Positions 4,304-55,387 of a DNA stretch of 64,000 nt are shown here, in pieces. The position numbers and the translations under genes are program-made. The stretch lies in contig CAZRXG010000015.1 in NCBI GenBank assembly GCA_964603985.1, forward strand, positions 11,957-75,956. Reading direction: 5' to 3'. This DNA comes from an uncultured Anaerolineae bacterium. GTDB taxonomy: Bacteria > Chloroflexota > Anaerolineae > Aggregatilineales > UBA3940. Each line of letters opens with the position of its first letter. The first letter of the stretch is position 1. Below the pieces are notes generated by a model. The model did no database searches. It had not been told where the DNA came from and saw only the letters and a program-made list of their open reading frames with translations.

Positions 4304-4513
4304 CCCCATTGATGAACTTTGACCGTTTTATCCGGTCACCGTTTGCCCCCCCCCCCCCGCCCCCCCCCCCCCATACCCCCCCGGCCGCGCGGGGGGGGGG
4401 GGGGGAGGCAGACCGGCGGCCGGCGGGCGGGGGCGGTGCGGCGCACAGGTGGACGAAGCGAGCCGATCAGGCGACCGCCTGATTTGCGTCCACGTCTCGT
4501 TTAAGTTCGCAAA
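4304..4513 (+). repeat. MITE/REP-like intergenic element, copy A (homopolymer-expanded)
   Basis: Left end gaactttgaccgttttatccggtcaccgtttgcc and right end aagggactttg match copy B. The internal arms are expanded to C13-g-C13 ... C7 ... G15. Lies between convergent genes. Confidence 0.6.
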
Positions 4514-9039: not shown

Positions 9040-9107
9040 AGACCCGCCGGGAATCAAAAGACCGCGCTCGTGGTGCAGGCAAGTTCTTTTTCCTCCCGGC
9101 GCTCGAT

Positions 9108-9224
9108 GAGCTTTAACCGTTTAGTCCGGGCACCGTTTGCCCCCCACCCCCGCCCAGAGCAGCCAGACGAGCCACATCTCCGTCATGGCCGGATTAGGCT
9201 CAAGGTGTATAAGGGACTTTGCGG
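9108..9224 (+). repeat. MITE/REP-like intergenic element, copy B (short form)
   Basis: gagctttaaccgtttagtccgggcaccgtttgccccccaccccc ... gcagccagacgagccacatctccgtcatggccggattagg ... caaggtgtataagggactttgcgg. Lacks the central hairpin module. Confidence 0.65.
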
Positions 9225-12789: not shown

Positions 12790-12808
12790 GAGTCTCCACC
12801 GGCTCATG

Positions 12809-12950
12809 AAATTTAACTATTTAATCCGGGCATCGTTTGCCCCCCACCCCCGGCCCCTCCCCCACATTCCGCGCCTGACGGCGCCGGGGGGAGGGGAGAA
12901 GTCAGACGAACCGGTATTTCCATCGTGGCCGGATTAAATGCTCAGTGCAT
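12809..12950 (+). repeat. MITE/REP-like intergenic element, copy C (full form)
   Basis: Terminal inverted repeats tatttaatccgggca / tggccggattaaat. Central hairpin CCCCTCCCCC-acattcc-GCGCC-tgac-GGCGC-c-GGGGGGAGGGG. Confidence 0.7.
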
Positions 12951-12967
12951 AGACCGGCTCACACAGG

Positions 12968-13690
12968 TTACATACCGCCGCCGGGAGGTGAGACACCCCC
13001 GGCAGTGCCCTCCGCCCGCTCCTTGATGCCCAGCAGCATCTTACGCTCCATGATGAAGTGGGCCGGTTCCAGGACGGCGTACACGAGCGGCGCAAGCGGC
13101 AGCCGAGGCTCGTAGATGGCCCGCAGGCGCGCGATCAGGCGCGTTGTCCCGTTGTCCAACTCGTTGAGCAGGAAGGCCCACGTTCCGTCGAAGCGGGGGC
13201 CTGTGTCGTCAGTCGCAACGGCCTGCCCGGTGAGGGGGTTCAGCGTGGCGCGCAGCACGAGTGAGCGCCCCGGCTCGATGGCGGCGACGACGAACCATCC
13301 CACGTCGGGGGCGGCGGGCACCGGGTCGCCGACCTCCAGGTGCTGCAATTCCGGGATGATGCGGTCGGCAGATTCGCCGTCGACGAAGTCACCGGCCCCC
13401 AGGGCATCCTCCAGGCGGTCGTAGCTGTACCACCCGGCACGGTTATACCCGATCTGCACCAGCCAGGGCCAGATGTCGGCGGCGGGGGCGCGAACGGTGA
13501 TGGCGCGGGTGGTTTGCACCAGCGGGTGGGGCACGATCTCGTCGCCCGGCAGCGAGCGGCTGACCTCGTCGTCGGCAGCGCCCCACCTGAGGTGCCAGGG
13601 CCGGACCAGGAGCAGATACGACGCGACGGCGGTGGCCCCGGTCTTGACCAAGCCGCTCGAAGCTCTGAAGACGGATGATCGCTTAGGCAT
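12968..13690 (-). CDS. SRPBCC family protein
   Basis: 240-aa ORF. The pattern ...TRAITVRAPAADIWPWLVQIG..RAGWYSYD... is typical of SRPBCC / polyketide-cyclase-like proteins. Confidence 0.65.
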   Translation of the reverse strand: MPKRSSVFRASSGLVKTGATAVASYLLLVRPWHLRWGAADDEVSRSLPGDEIVPHPLVQTTRAITVRAPAADIWPWLVQIGYNRAGWYSYDRLEDALGAGDFVDGESADRIIPELQHLEVGDPVPAAPDVGWFVVAAIEPGRSLVLRATLNPLTGQAVATDDTGPRFDGTWAFLLNELDNGTTRLIARLRAIYEPRLPLAPLVYAVLEPAHFIMERKMLLGIKERAEGTAGGVSPPGGGM

Positions 13691-15699: not shown

Positions 15700-15990
15700 G
15701 CGACGGTCACCCCCACTTCCGCCTTCCCCCTTGCCCCCTCAGGCAAGGGGGAAAGCTATTGTAAGGGACGTGTGGGCCGGTGCGCCCGCCGCAAAGTCCC
15801 CCGATGCACCTTAACCATTTAATGCGGTAACAACATGGGTGCTCTGTCAACCTGGATCGTGCGAATTGTGGCCCTGCCCTCACCCATCTCGGACGGCCTG
15901 GCCGTCCTCGATTCGCCCTCTCCCACCGGGAGAGGGCAGACTGAGCGCGACCGGAGGTCGCGACCGCAGGTCGGGCGAAGGCGGGTGAGG
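15700..15990 (-). repeat. composite GC-rich repeat region containing inverted copies of modules from the MITE-like family
   Basis: The reverse complement contains ccgcattaaatggttaaggtgcatcggggg (compare copy D ccggattaaatactcaaggtgcatcgggg) and gggagagggcgaatcgaggacggccaggccgtccgagatgggtgagggcag (compare 21199-21250). Extra hairpins such as CCCCCTTGCC-ccctca-GGCAAGGGGG. Confidence 0.5.
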
Positions 15991-16029
15991 GCTTGAGCAA
16001 CAACTTGTGAAAACCAACTTAACGGAGCA

Positions 16030-16920
16030 CTAGTAGCTCGTCTCCATGTCGATCAGCCCCTTCTGCTTCGCCCGGCGCAGCGCCCACCGGTAGAAGAACA
16101 CCGACACGACCCCCAGCACCACGCAGAACCCCAGCAGAATCCCCATCAGCGCTGCGTTGGAGAAGCGGGCCAGCGTCGGGAAGGCTGCCGCCTGCGGGCC
16201 GAGCATCGCCCGCCGCGCCACCTCCAGCCAGTACGTCACCGGGAGGGCGAACCCGACCGGCCTCAGCCACACCGGCAGCACGTCCAGCGGGAAGATTGCC
16301 CCTGTGAACAGGTACAGCCCTCCTGCCACCGCCGTGCCGATTGACCAGAAGTGACGGGCCATCATCATCGTGGCGCTGCCCATCATCAGCCCGATGCACG
16401 CCAGCGCGATCACGCCCAGCGCCGTGCTGCCCAGCAGCAGCGGCCAGTTGATCGTCGCCGCGCTGATCGGCAGCTTGAAGACGACCATCCCGAAGCCAAT
16501 CGTGATCAGCACCGAGATCGTGCCGATGATCAACTGCGCCACCCCGCGCCCCATCAGGTAGAAGTAGCCGCTCATCGGCGTGGTGTGCAGCTGCCTGGCC
16601 GTGCGGTAGTGCTCGCGGTCGTCGATCACCGTCCAGCTTATCCCCGTGATCACCTGCGAGACCAGGATGTAAAGCGCGTTGCCCAGGTAGATGTAGGCGA
16701 AGATCGGCTCGCCCGTCGCGCCGCCGGTGATCACGTTGTACATCACCACCAGGATCAGCACGCTGGCGACCGGACGCGCGAATGAGTAGATCGCGAACAG
16801 GAACGGGTCGGCCCAGTTTGACTCGATTTGCCATCCCAGCCACGCCGCGACCGTGAAGGTGCGCAGCGCGTCGTTCTTGCGCACCAGGGGTATGTTGAGA
16901 ATCCGCTCTGCGATGATCAT
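16030..16920 (-). CDS. ABC-2 type transporter permease
   Basis: 296 aa with about 6 TM helices. Adjacent to a second permease and the ATPase. Confidence 0.8.
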   Translation of the reverse strand: MIIAERILNIPLVRKNDALRTFTVAAWLGWQIESNWADPFLFAIYSFARPVASVLILVVMYNVITGGATGEPIFAYIYLGNALYILVSQVITGISWTVIDDREHYRTARQLHTTPMSGYFYLMGRGVAQLIIGTISVLITIGFGMVVFKLPISAATINWPLLLGSTALGVIALACIGLMMGSATMMMARHFWSIGTAVAGGLYLFTGAIFPLDVLPVWLRPVGFALPVTYWLEVARRAMLGPQAAAFPTLARFSNAALMGILLGFCVVLGVVSVFFYRWALRRAKQKGLIDMETSY

Positions 16921-21003: not shown

Positions 21004-21250
21004 GTTAAGCTTTCTAATTCCCCCTCGTCGTCGCTGCGCTCCGGTCATCGTTTGCCCCCCACCCTCGTCCCCTCCCCCACATTTCGCGCCTGACGGCGCT
21101 GGGGGGAGGGGGCAGTCAAGCAGCCAGGCAGCCAGGCAGCCAGGCAGCCAGACGAGTCACATTTCCATCATGGCCGGATTAAATACTCAAGGTGCATCGG
21201 GGAGAGGGCGAATTGAGGACGGTCTGCCGTCCGAGATGGGGGAGGGCAGT
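21004..21250 (+). repeat. MITE/REP-like intergenic element, copy D (longest; 8-bp VNTR plus second module)
   Basis: ccggtcatcgtttgccccccaccc...cccctcccccacatttcgcgcctgacggcgctggggggaggggg. (GCAGCCAG) x4 perfect plus 1 degenerate unit at 21112-21151. ...catcatggccggattaaatactcaaggtgcat. Then the module gggagagggcgaattgaggacggtctgccgtccgagatgggggagggcag. Confidence 0.7.
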
Positions 21251-21301
21251 ATGGGGGACGGATGAGCCGTCAGGCTCACAGGGGGGTGGCGTGGTATGGC
21301 A

Positions 21302-27311: not shown

Positions 27312-27370
27312 GCCGGTCATTGTTTGCTCCCCCACTCCCGACCCCTCCCCCGGTACCGTCAGGCTCGTCA
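27312..27370 (+). repeat. partial copy (E) of the MITE-like element
   Basis: ccggtcattgtttgctcccccactcccgacccctcccccggtaccgtcaggctcgtcagaccgggggg. It abuts the stop of the 27368 gene. Confidence 0.45.
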
Positions 27371-28521: not shown

Positions 28522-28917
28522 ATGTCCTACACTATCGAGGTGCTCCCTGGCGAGCCGATCATCTTCTCCAAGCTCTCCAAATCTTTCAGCATCGAGCGCG
28601 ATCTACCGGTGGCGATAGACACAATATTCGAACTGTTGGAAGGTATGGACGGGAAGTGTTTCTTCATTGTCGATTCGGGAGGATTCGTTCCCGACCTGCA
28701 GGGCATCGTGACCAGCGCCAGCATGATGGCCAGAGGCGAGGACCCCGTATGGCACCATCCCAACATATGGGAGGTTATCGTGGTTACGTCGGCAAACATT
28801 GTTAAGATGAGCGTTGATGGACTTCGACATGCGGCGTTTGGGCATCTGAAAATCCAGGCCTTCAGCACGCCCGAAGAAGCGCTGGCCTACGCCCGTGGGA
28901 AGATCGCCGGGGAATGA
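28522..28917 (+). CDS. hypothetical protein (131 aa)
   Basis: ATG 28522 with AAGGAGG 9 nt upstream. Lower GC than its surroundings. Family not recognised. Confidence 0.6.
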   Translation: MSYTIEVLPGEPIIFSKLSKSFSIERDLPVAIDTIFELLEGMDGKCFFIVDSGGFVPDLQGIVTSASMMARGEDPVWHHPNIWEVIVVTSANIVKMSVDGLRHAAFGHLKIQAFSTPEEALAYARGKIAGE

Positions 28918-29138
28918 AAGAACTGGTGCTTCGTTAAGTTGGTTTTGCCTCCCTTCTTGGGCACCCTCATCGCCGCTGCGCTCCGATGTGTCGCCCGCGC
29001 ATGGGGGGACGGACGATCCGTTGGGCTTCGCAGGGGGGTGGGGGCTTCCTGGAAATGGAGTGAATGAGCTACCAATGCCCTGCAAAGGGGGAGGCTTTTG
29101 GTGACAATTTGTTCGTGCCTCCCGCCAGAACCCGGCAT

Positions 29139-47911: not shown

Positions 47912-48011
47912 CGCGCCTCATCTACAATATCCATTCGAGGGGCAAAAGTTACAACCCGGAGGGTATGACGGTCAGTAGACCGCAATCGTCCGGTCAGGCA
48001 GGGTGGCTTAT

Positions 48012-48173
48012 GAGCTTTAACAATTTAATCCGGTCACCGTTTTTGCCCCCCACCCCCGGCCCCTCCCCCACATTCCGCGCCTGACGGCGCTGGGGGGAGG
48101 GGGCAGCCAAGCAGCCAGGCAGCCAGACGAGCCACATTTCCATCATGGCCGGATATAAATACTCAAGATGCAT
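48012..48173 (+). repeat. MITE/REP-like intergenic element, copy F (full form)
   Basis: gagctttaacaatttaatccggtcaccgtttttgccccccacccccggcccctcccccacattccgcgcctgacggcgctggggggaggggg, then (GCAGCCAG) x2 plus 1 degenerate unit, then gccacatttccatcatggccggatataaatactcaagatgcat. Confidence 0.7.
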
Positions 48174-53688: not shown

Positions 53689-54681
53689 ATGACTGACCAA
53701 CCGAAGCGCGACCGGCGAGATGAATCGGCCAGCACACACGCCAACGGCGATTTTGTTGCGGGCGACAAGAGCCAACTGGCCGACATCGCCCGTATGCGCG
53801 GTGACTGGGACGAAGCCGGGACGCTCTACCGCGCGGCGCTGGAGGAGTTCGAGGCGCTGGGCGACCGGTGGGGCGTGGCGGTCAGCAAGGGCAAGCTGGC
53901 CGACATCGCCGCCAATCGCGGCAACTGGGCCGAGGCCGAGGCGCTGTTCGAAGAGGCCATCGCCGTCATGAAACAGTTAGGTGACCGGCAACAGGTGGCC
54001 GCGATGCAAGGGGTGTTGGCCGACGTCGCCCGCATGCGTGGCAACTGGGACGAGGCCGAGAAGTTGTTGAATGAAGCTATGGCAGTTTCCATCGAGATTG
54101 GCGACCGGCGTGATGCGGCCGTCAAAAAGGGCAAGCTGGCCGACATCGCCGCCCATCGCGGTGACTGGGACGCAGCCGAGATGCTACGCAAAGAGGTGCT
54201 GGCCGAATACGAGGCGCTGGGCGACCGGCAGGGTGTGGTGGTCAGCAAGGGCAAGCTGGCCAACATCGCCGCCAGGCACGGCGACTGGGCCGAGGCCGAG
54301 ATGCTCTACGGCGCGGCGCTGGCGGGGTTCGAGGCGCTGGGCGACCGGCAGCAGATTGCAGTTGTCAAGGGTAAGCTGGCCGACATCGTCGCCCATCGCG
54401 GCGATTGGGACGCAGCCGAGACACTCAACCGCGAGGCACTGGGTGAGTGCCGGGCGCTGGGTGCGTTGGTCGAGGAGGCGGTCAGGTCGTATAACTTTGC
54501 GGGTATGCTGTGCAGGCTGGGGCGGTTGGCCGAGGCCGTCGAGCTGATGGAACGTGTGGTGGAGATCGACGAGCAGGTCAACCACCCCGATCTGGAGAGG
54601 AACCGGGCGCGCCTGGAGCAGTTCCGTGCCGAGTTGAAGAAACGCGGCGGCGGGCAGGGAGATCAGGCCGCCAGGGGATGA
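53689..54681 (+). CDS. TPR-like helical repeat protein with 6-7 tandem 40-residue repeats
   Basis: Repeats of the form KGKLADIAAHRGDWDEAE.L...AL..FEALGDRQGVAV. The 120-bp period is visible at the DNA level. Confidence 0.75.
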   Translation: MTDQPKRDRRDESASTHANGDFVAGDKSQLADIARMRGDWDEAGTLYRAALEEFEALGDRWGVAVSKGKLADIAANRGNWAEAEALFEEAIAVMKQLGDRQQVAAMQGVLADVARMRGNWDEAEKLLNEAMAVSIEIGDRRDAAVKKGKLADIAAHRGDWDAAEMLRKEVLAEYEALGDRQGVVVSKGKLANIAARHGDWAEAEMLYGAALAGFEALGDRQQIAVVKGKLADIVAHRGDWDAAETLNREALGECRALGALVEEAVRSYNFAGMLCRLGRLAEAVELMERVVEIDEQVNHPDLERNRARLEQFRAELKKRGGGQGDQAARG

Positions 54682-54727
54682 CGCCGGGCCGTCTCGTCTT
54701 CTGCGCGGAGTCGTGCTATGATGGCCT
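54682..54727 (+). repeat. 46-bp perfect direct repeat, copy 1 (contains extended -10 TGcTATGAT)
   Basis: cgccgggccgtctcgtcttctgcgcggagtcgtgctatgatggcct is identical to 55342-55387. Confidence 0.9.
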
Positions 54728-55341: not shown

Positions 55342-55387
55342 CGCCGGGCCGTCTCGTCTTCTGCGCGGAGTCGTGCTATGATGGCCT
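55342..55387 (+). repeat. 46-bp perfect direct repeat, copy 2
   Basis: Identical to 54682-54727, exactly 660 bp downstream. Confidence 0.9.

Follow-up and report, generated by a model that had tools for sequence, protein, structure and literature searches.

A small repeat at the centres of hairpins in an Anaerolineae genome is probably a non-autonomous mobile element

The window analysed here is a 64-kb stretch (G000:C15:11957-75956) of the draft genome of an uncultured Anaerolineae bacterium from the order Aggregatilineales; G000 denotes the genome and C15 the contig. The draft comprises 4.67 Mb in 93 contigs, has a G+C content of 63% and is 96% complete. Two minus-strand genes (11575-12790/12807 and 12968-13690) enclose the focal copy of a repeat that we call E. 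The window carries five E copies, one E fragment and one related element, E2 (Table 1). All five copies lie on the plus strand, spaced 3.7-27 kb apart, among genes on both strands.

E is a non-coding element of ~105-190 bp, and no open reading frame (ORF) is conserved across its copies. The consensus reads ATGAACTTTAACAATTTAATCCGGTCATCGTTTGCCCCCCACCCCCG-TCCCCTCCCCCACATTCCGCGCCTGACGGCGCTGGGGGGAGGGG-[(GCAGCCAR)0-5]-AGAAGCCAGACGAACCGGCATTTCCATCGTGGCCGGATTAAATACTCAAGGTGCAT, where (GCAGCCAR)n is a microsatellite. Alignment of 31 full copies reveals ends that are 27-nt imperfect inverted repeats (ATGAACTTTAACAATTTAATCCGGTCA / TGGCCGGATTAAATACTCAAGGTGCAT) matching at 21 of 27 positions. The AT-rich termini align column by column, so the similarity is not that of low-complexity sequence. 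Between the ends lies a central nested hairpin, CCCCTCCCCC-ACATTCC-GCGCC-TGAC-GGCGC-N-GGGGGGAGGGG, recovered both in folds and in the consensus alignment. The consensus structure pairs columns 67-76 with 101-110 and 84-88 with 94-98, and in predicted folds the two ends of E pair into a blunt stem. A short form of ~105 nt is devoid of the central hairpin and has the same internal boundary in six loci. As RNA, E is predicted to fold at -61 to -73 kcal/mol with z-scores of only -1.7 to -2.9, and covariation within E is nearly nil (RNAalifold). The bottom strand of the long form carries four G-runs, a G-quadruplex-type motif; in the C-rich tract of the focal copy they read G5 A G4 CC G5 T G6. This tract is the sole part of E with matches in relatives.

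The interior of E, or cargo, is interchangeable and comprises hairpin modules, the microsatellite and nested elements. Repeats built on the C-rich hairpin core (CACCCCCGGCCCCTCYCCC-loop-GGGRGAGGGG) are common in the order, and their inner hairpins differ from genome to genome, indicating that the core is itself cargo. Truncated and nested copies of E both occur. Two E copies outside the window contain, near their apex, a third small element of ~235 nt bounded by CAGGGGTAGGTTTTT / AAAAACCTACCCCTG (G000:C15:7320-7560 and G000:C48:6015-6250).

Three rounds of nhmmer over the draft collected 82 non-overlapping E loci, 65 of them at 50 bits or more and 31 of full length. By the gene calls of a home-made codon-usage caller, which are crude, 81 of the 82 are intergenic. 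The copies have no orientation bias to their neighbouring genes (>E> 20, <E< 18, <E> 12, >E< 12), and 38 of 62 classifiable copies sit between co-directional genes. E copies are ~88% identical to one another (range 74-97%). Pairs on the same contig reach 88.3% and all other pairs 86.8%, and the closest relative of a copy usually lies on a different contig. Same-contig copies are thus no closer kin, and the family spread by dispersal, not by local duplication. Its members are clustered, with nine on the 85-kb contig C15 and none on the 305-kb C1 or the 249-kb C3. Many loci fall at contig ends, indicating that E breaks the assembly.

A first-pass annotation of the window, made from the sequence alone, had described a family of intergenic repeats whose ends are inverted repeats and whose centre is a GC-rich hairpin. 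Reading the sequence at each place and searching genome-wide finds the family where it was reported, with conserved ends and a copy number far beyond chance. The hairpin, the shared orientation, the intergenic location, the modular build with its hairpin-less short form and the absence of a transposase in or beside the copies are all borne out. The consensus folds into the nested hairpin with paired ends, and the small ORFs over copies are, as proposed, translations of the repeat. The inverted repeats are longer than had been stated. Of the at least seven copies tallied in 64 kb, five copies and a fragment stand, and the seventh (15700-15990), taken for an inverted and rearranged copy, belongs to E2. 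In the truncated copy, positions 4343-4410 contain homopolymers (C13, C13 and G15) that may reflect slippage or a draft-assembly artefact.

E joins host DNA with no duplication of the target, and its copies lie at the geometric midpoint of palindromes or hairpins that were already there. A direct-repeat scan of the flanks of 25 copies gave a mean of 1.16 versus 1.48 in shuffled left/right pairings, which is no enrichment. No target duplication was detected in 25 of 26 complete copies, nor in 15 terminus-bounded copies from other genomes. Once joined, the unique flanks fold to a hairpin with a 4-nt loop that E splits 2+2 in 15 of the 26 complete copies. The mean dG of the joined-flank fold is -6.1 kcal/mol, compared with -3.5 kcal/mol in shuffled pairings (Mann-Whitney p = 6e-6). 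Perfect stems of at least 5 bp in the exact 2+2 geometry surround eight of 26 copies and occur at 0.16% of 100,000 random intergenic positions (p = 8e-17). When the copies were supplied with 12-nt flanks and no hint, RNAalifold matched flank columns 6-10 to 201-205 and counted 4-12 double changes for each pair. A typical landing site is a 5-10 bp stem with a 4-nt loop split 2+2. The target stems are unrelated in sequence (GCCTGTCC, GCGTGCC, CCATTGC, GTCGGCT, GGCGGC, CCCCGCC and others). The dinucleotides 5' of E also vary (TC, TG, AG, CG, CT, TT and others), and there is no conserved tetranucleotide beside the ends. Several flank arms overlap gene ends; the rebuilt "empty" frame at C4:106373 lengthens a peptidase by 13 residues.

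Some landing sites belong to repeats that are themselves dispersed in the genome. M2 is a CGTC-tagged palindrome resembling repetitive extragenic palindromes (REPs), GAGCCTGACGGCTCATCCGTCCCCCC-RTGCAY-GGGGGGACACATCGGAGCGC, with ~55 copies; it is a frequent landing site of E, and 22 of 28 adjacent M2 pairs are co-oriented. Among 55 left arms, ~25 copies have GACGGCTCATCCGTCCCCCC-RTGCAY-GGGGGGAC... with a short centre of 3-7 nt. An empty site reads CCCCCC-ATGCAT-GGGGGG and a filled one CCCCCC-ATG-[ATGAAC...GATGCAT]-CAT-GGGGGG, so that the filled site equals the empty site plus E to the base. Parsing these sites with a 2-, 3- or 6-bp duplication (AT, ATG or ATGCAT) does not yield the observed junctions. 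E is found in both orientations inside M2.

M4 is a two-hairpin repeat of ~190 nt with 12 copies. In four of them E takes the place of the inner 113 nt, which run from the loop of one hairpin to that of the other. Each junction falls at the centre of a loop, and the E variants in these sites are not each other's closest relatives. The pattern is as expected for insertion followed by adjacent deletion, and such deletions also end at hairpin-loop centres. The M2 hairpin, the M3 hairpin and a REP-like hairpin of G103, another genome of the order, recur without E at many sites, and their loops are exactly those predicted.

The termini of E extend beyond the family. A conserved ~24-nt terminus (5'-ATG[A/C]AC.TT.AC..TTTAAT..GG ... 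CAT-3') occurs 97 times in G000, with 85 instances in E and 12 in other small mosaics. We compared 381 other genomes of the order and a sample of 250 Chloroflexota genomes. Within the order, the terminus is present in G060 (15), G103 (8), G086 (3), G003 (2) and G236 (2), and a reversed control pattern gave 0-1 matches. At the loci fetched from these genomes, the termini bound non-coding elements of 116-193 bp with quite different interiors. Twelve of 15 such elements occupy the middle of a hairpin specific to the site, and duplications are absent. One site reads GGACAGCA-TG/E/TA-TGCTGTCC (slashes mark junctions), and the REP-like hairpin of the same genome is GGACGGCA-TGTA-TGCCGTCC.

Two more distant genomes in the Chloroflexota sample, G386 (another class) and G475 (another order), also carry the terminus, again between flanks that are complementary. 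G386 has seven copies, including one ~600-bp mosaic with the flanks CTGAATA.A/TATTCAG. G475 has ten identical termini, five of each of two kinds (ATGAACATTAACAATTTAGTTCGGTAAC... and ATGCACATTAACAAATTAATTCGGTAAC...), and every one is ~30 nt from a contig end. At least one site inferred there is a GTAG...CTAC REP hairpin split TT/AA. These termini mark a young multi-copy element with an interior that neither the G475 assembly nor 150 genomes of its family contain, and a search for an autonomous member would best begin there. The whole of E was found in none of the 381 order genomes, nor in plasmid or phage records. Exact patterns for the central hairpin, left end and right end returned nothing from the GTDB genome or JGI metagenome collections. 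A 19-base terminus pattern gave seven single matches in unrelated taxa, about the chance expectation. The ~24-nt termini define a superfamily that several genera of the order share with at least two Chloroflexota outside it. Its members are best read as non-autonomous elements, spread across the phylum, that enter the loops of hairpins, probably as single-stranded DNA.

E is also polar. Adjacent copies are co-oriented in 24 of 29 pairs, and the top strand of E lies on the strand that is G-rich at third codon positions (G3 > C3 for 52 of 65 copies and on 29 of 36 contigs). Subtracting the coding-strand effect still leaves 29 of 36 contigs. The third-position (GC3) skew is +0.028 for genes co-oriented with E and -0.073 for anti-oriented genes (25 of 33 contigs, p = 5e-5). 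Replication direction in the 93-contig draft was inferred from skew alone. The rightward strand beside dnaA is G-rich for ~50 kb, which fits the G-rich strand being the leading one but is no proof of it.

Table 1. Coordinates of E, its parts and related repeats. Plain numbers are window positions; loci elsewhere are given by genome and contig. The nhmmer cut-off in the window was E<=1e-5.
Feature	Position	Strand	Remarks
Focal E copy, long form without microsatellite, 145 nt	12806..12950	+	nhmmer 141.7 bits, model positions 2-143
Focal left terminal inverted repeat ATGAAATTTAACTATTTAATCCGGGCA	12806..12832	+	alignment of 31 full copies; pairs with 12924-12950 in folds
C-rich tract GCCCCCCACCCCCGGCCCCTCCCCC	12839..12863	+	read from sequence
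Focal central nested hairpin: outer stem CCCCTCCCCC/GGGGGAGGGG, inner GCGCC-TGAC-GGCGC	12854..12896	+	folds; consensus structure
Focal right terminal inverted repeat TGGCCGGATTAAATGCTCAGTGCAT	12926..12950	+	2-nt deletion relative to consensus CTCAAGGTGCAT
8-bp direct repeat ACCGGCTC, left copy	12798..12805	+	right copy 12953-12960, 2 nt past focal E
E copy, long form, 164 nt	48010..48173	+	138.8 bits; GCAGCCAA + 2 x GCAGCCAG between central hairpin and right arm; (GCAGCCAR)n microsatellite
E copy with 20-nt insertion within left arm	21006..21197	+	4-5 microsatellite units, then M2 arm at ~21235-21290
E copy, short form, 104 nt	9107..9210	+	
E copy, truncated/degenerate, right arm lost	4312..4413	+	model positions 1-100
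E fragment, inner left arm and C-rich tract only	27312..27370	+	falls short of the nhmmer cut-off
E2 element	15804..~16040	+	~255-nt mosaic family, 6 copies; shares with E only the ~24-nt terminus ATGCACCTTAACCATTTAATGCGG
M2 examples	21235-21290; G000:C43:26211, C53:14556, C62:8471		
M4, empty	G000:C2:189413, C8, C10, C20, C23, C38, C80		
M4 with E	G000:C32:33325, C37:16015, C45:13344, C48:5970		

The window holds other repeats. A 50-nt module (AAAACCAACTTAACGGAGCAC...) that adjoins E2 is present at 16010-16059 and 28897-28946 as a distant inverted pair and recurs at ~3150 of the stretch G000:C53:11546-14815; it is probably another small repeat family. Five tandem 120-nt units (53758-54537) form 40-amino-acid repeats inside an ORF, and a perfect 46-nt direct repeat occurs at 54682-54727 and 55342-55387, 660 nt apart.

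Taken together, the conserved termini, the exchangeable interiors, the dispersed positions, the truncation and nesting of some copies and the burst in a single lineage leave a non-autonomous mobile element as the only economical reading. We conclude that E is probably a non-autonomous, non-coding mobile element inserted at hairpin centres, most plausibly as single-stranded DNA. E would move as, or into, single-stranded DNA, and the hairpin loop would be the exposed single-stranded target. Insertion into one strand would leave no duplication, and replication-dependent exposure of one template strand could give the polarity. The substrate may be E in its folded state, with the paired ends forming a blunt stem, and an enzyme specific for the conserved termini would move it in trans. 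Since the copies are ~88% identical to one another, that enzyme may no longer be in this genome. A copy inside an operon would be expected to give the mRNA a hairpin of great stability. Single-strand joining at the loop centre would explain together why no target is duplicated, why the sequence of the stem is immaterial, why loops are split 2+2 and why E is polar by strand. More tentatively, E may belong to an undescribed structure-guided system that recognises hairpins as such, opens the loop centre in single-stranded DNA, probably at the replication fork, and joins a folded, blunt-stemmed element without duplication.

Several observations weigh against a mobile element of this kind. The focal E is the sole complete copy with a flanking repeat that resembles a target-site duplication (the 8-bp ACCGGCTC). 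Terminal inverted repeats are characteristic of DDE transposons, and those do duplicate their targets. The flanking hairpin is missing in ~40% of copies. Junction loops vary (TCTG, TCTC, TGCA, GAAT, TGTA, TAAA and others), which argues against a sequence-specific HUH enzyme of known type. That the hairpins predate the insertions is apparent only through the paralogous repeats M2, M3 and M4. The only other assembly with the focal locus, a Logan contig retrieved by exact-protein look-up, carries the same insertion; a look-up with a second gene returned nothing. In a comparison of the congeneric G103 and G102, both of the same order, intergenic DNA did not align and yielded no orthologous empty site. 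The GC3 skew is noisy in a fragmented draft, and its tie to replication direction is taken only from the sign beside dnaA. The unrelated M2 repeat has the same skew bias (19 of 25 contigs), making polarity a general property of these hairpin repeats. Either the insertion mechanism or selection acting on how hairpins or G-runs are oriented may thus underlie the polarity of E. Finally, searches of G000 and related genomes found no enzyme for E movement.

These searches covered several enzyme types. No insertion sequence (IS) with the ends of E, such as the first-pass annotation had envisaged, was found in G000, the 381 order genomes, GTDB species representatives, JGI metagenome contigs, or plasmid and phage records. 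Pfam searches of the whole 96% complete genome returned no match for the IS110 transposase (PF01548) and none for IS4/IS5 transposases, and TnpB is present as one broken copy. A low-GC, frame-broken IS630-type (DDE_3) remnant with ends unrelated to E lies at ~1240-1860 of G000:C53:11546-14815. Where termini pair up at a distance of 0.35-6 kb, the genes between them are all ordinary ones of membrane or FIST type. A 30-amino-acid frame at C8:9121 that starts with terminus-like sequence is not a gene. The only GIY-YIG nuclease match in the genome is inside a 624-amino-acid open frame, not a small stand-alone gene; this frame is presumably UvrC.

The genome has a single Y1 domain (PF01797, IS200/RAYT-type), which is in frame inside a 686-amino-acid N6-methyltransferase-like ORF (G000:C19:31663-34956). 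A copy of the hairpin GACAAGGGGCTTAAGCCCCTTGTC, translated as DKGLKPLV, stands on either side of it; the genome contains six copies of this hairpin. A small Y1_Tnp gene is present in all five other element-bearing genomes tested. We rejected Y1/RAYT as the mover of E because no E termini lie close to the Y1 genes in other element-bearing genomes and the G103 gene is flanked by its own REPs.

E could instead be an ordinary MITE (a miniature inverted-repeat transposable element), the label of the first-pass annotation, although we consider this improbable. On this account E is a deletion derivative of a DDE-type IS, moved in trans by cut and paste into double-stranded DNA, with the symmetric target preference of a dimeric transposase appearing as a preference for hairpins. 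The terminal inverted repeats, the small non-coding and modular core and the many dispersed intergenic copies fit the label, and the ends read TG..CA one base in, like IS3-type elements. The ten identical G475 termini at contig ends could mark a longer autonomous element, and the 8-bp repeat at the focal copy agrees with a duplication. IS elements of five families target REP palindromes, ISRm22 exactly on the palindrome axis (PMC1525189). Against this stand the near-complete absence of target duplications in G000 and in the other genomes, and M2 sites that differ by E alone. The target stems are unrelated, so structure and not a consensus is their common feature. Orientation polarity is unexpected for a DDE MITE, no collection searched holds an IS with these ends, and the genome contains only the broken IS630 and TnpB remnants.

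Described bacterial MITEs (Correia/NEMIS, ERIC, Nezha and Chunjie; PMC3184786) resemble E in being shorter than 200 bp, non-coding and modular, with inverted ends, a hairpin, many intergenic copies and presumed mobilisation in trans. E differs from them in its lack of target-site duplication and of a cognate IS, in its landing at hairpin-loop centres whatever their sequence, and in its orientation by strand composition. IS elements that target REP palindromes are already known (IS1397/ISKpn1, ISPsy8, ISRm22, ISPa11, ISPpu9/10 and IS621). Like E they insert into repeated palindromes, some at the loop or axis, and ISPa11, of the IS110 family, leaves no direct repeats. They are autonomous, however, and each is specific for one REP sequence, most with duplications of 2-6 bp (PMC1525189), whereas E is non-coding and enters many unrelated hairpins. 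E is MITE-like in form but lacks the target duplication that defines MITEs, and it departs from REPIN, IS200/IS605 and IS110 elements in their own defining features.

Similarly unlikely is a REPIN-type origin, with two inverted REP-like arms forming a long hairpin moved by a RAYT (Y1/HUH) enzyme as in Pseudomonas and E. coli. E shares with REPINs and REP-BIME elements the inverted arms with a variable spacer, the long single-strand hairpin, the extragenic location and the lack of duplication (PMC3116915), and a single-strand mechanism is plausible for both. The polarity of E fits a Y1 enzyme acting at the lagging-strand template (PMC3333891), and Y1_Tnp genes accompany the elements in the other genomes. 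Unlike REPs, the arms of E are AT-rich, hold no palindrome of their own except CCGG and lack a GTAG/CGTC tag, and the tetranucleotide next to the ends is not conserved. No E terminus lies near any Y1 gene: the only Y1 domain in G000 is in the methyltransferase frame and flanked by the different hairpin, and the G103 gene has its own REPs. The "REP-like" part of the earlier label is therefore dropped; REP-like hairpins are the targets and cargo of E, not its ends.

Other systems share single features with E. IS200/IS605 elements (IS608, ISDra2) make no duplication, depend on DNA secondary structure and show a replication-linked orientation bias, although for E the bias is seen in GC3 skew only and replication direction is inferred. 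Single-strand transposition coupled to the lagging-strand template is established for IS608 and ISDra2 (summarised in PMC3333891). These elements have a subterminal hairpin at each end, no terminal inverted repeats and insertion 3' of a fixed 4-5-nt target, whereas the flanks of E are variable. A bridge-RNA element of the IS110/IS1111 type was rejected given the zero PF01548 matches and target stems that are unrelated and not one specific sequence. An integron attC site was likewise rejected: the right end CTCAAGGTGCAT lacks GTTRRRY and the copies are kilobases apart with genes on both strands, though an integrase gene was not searched for.

It is less likely again that the flanking palindromes arose after insertion, through an E hairpin that provokes template switching (quasi-palindrome correction) and copies one flank onto the other. 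Flank complementarity is copy-specific, several flank arms overlap gene ends and no orthologous empty site was obtained, all of which this account would accommodate. It is at odds with the regular 2+2 mostly unpaired bases between E and the flank stem, which correspond to a former 4-nt loop; an outward extension of the E stem would be contiguous. The M2, M3 and G103 hairpins exist often without E, with loops as predicted, and the M4 junctions lie in two different pre-existing loops.

Least likely is a functional host element under selection and not mobile (a small RNA, mRNA stabiliser or attenuator, or protein-binding or G-quadruplex site): the very stable RNA fold, the copies between co-directional genes, and a strand polarity and four-G-run motif that could reflect selection speak for it, and against it are modest z-scores with almost no covariation, either orientation relative to genes, truncated and nested copies, a family confined to one of 382 order genomes with only the termini conserved, zero Rfam matches at gathering threshold in the 64-kb window, and a scan of E with no promoter-like site and no terminator-like site of the kind the first-pass annotation had raised.

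In many bacteria the intergenic DNA is full of small palindromic repeats, and how most of these spread is, to our knowledge, not known. E and its relatives offer a clean rule set that holds in several genera: conserved 24-nt ends, free cargo, no duplication, loop-centre landing and strand polarity. This rule set misfits standard cut-and-paste transposition and points to a single-strand, structure-guided reaction. In practical terms, such repeats break short-read assemblies of Chloroflexota, as illustrated by the many contigs here that end inside a copy, and they give rise to spurious small ORFs. If a structure-guided system of this kind exists, hairpins, including REPs, terminators and other repeats, would be general landing sites, and "hairpin within hairpin" mosaics would be accounted for. 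The enzyme, if found, would explain both the origin of these nested mosaics and why REP-like hairpins and terminators are insertion hot spots.

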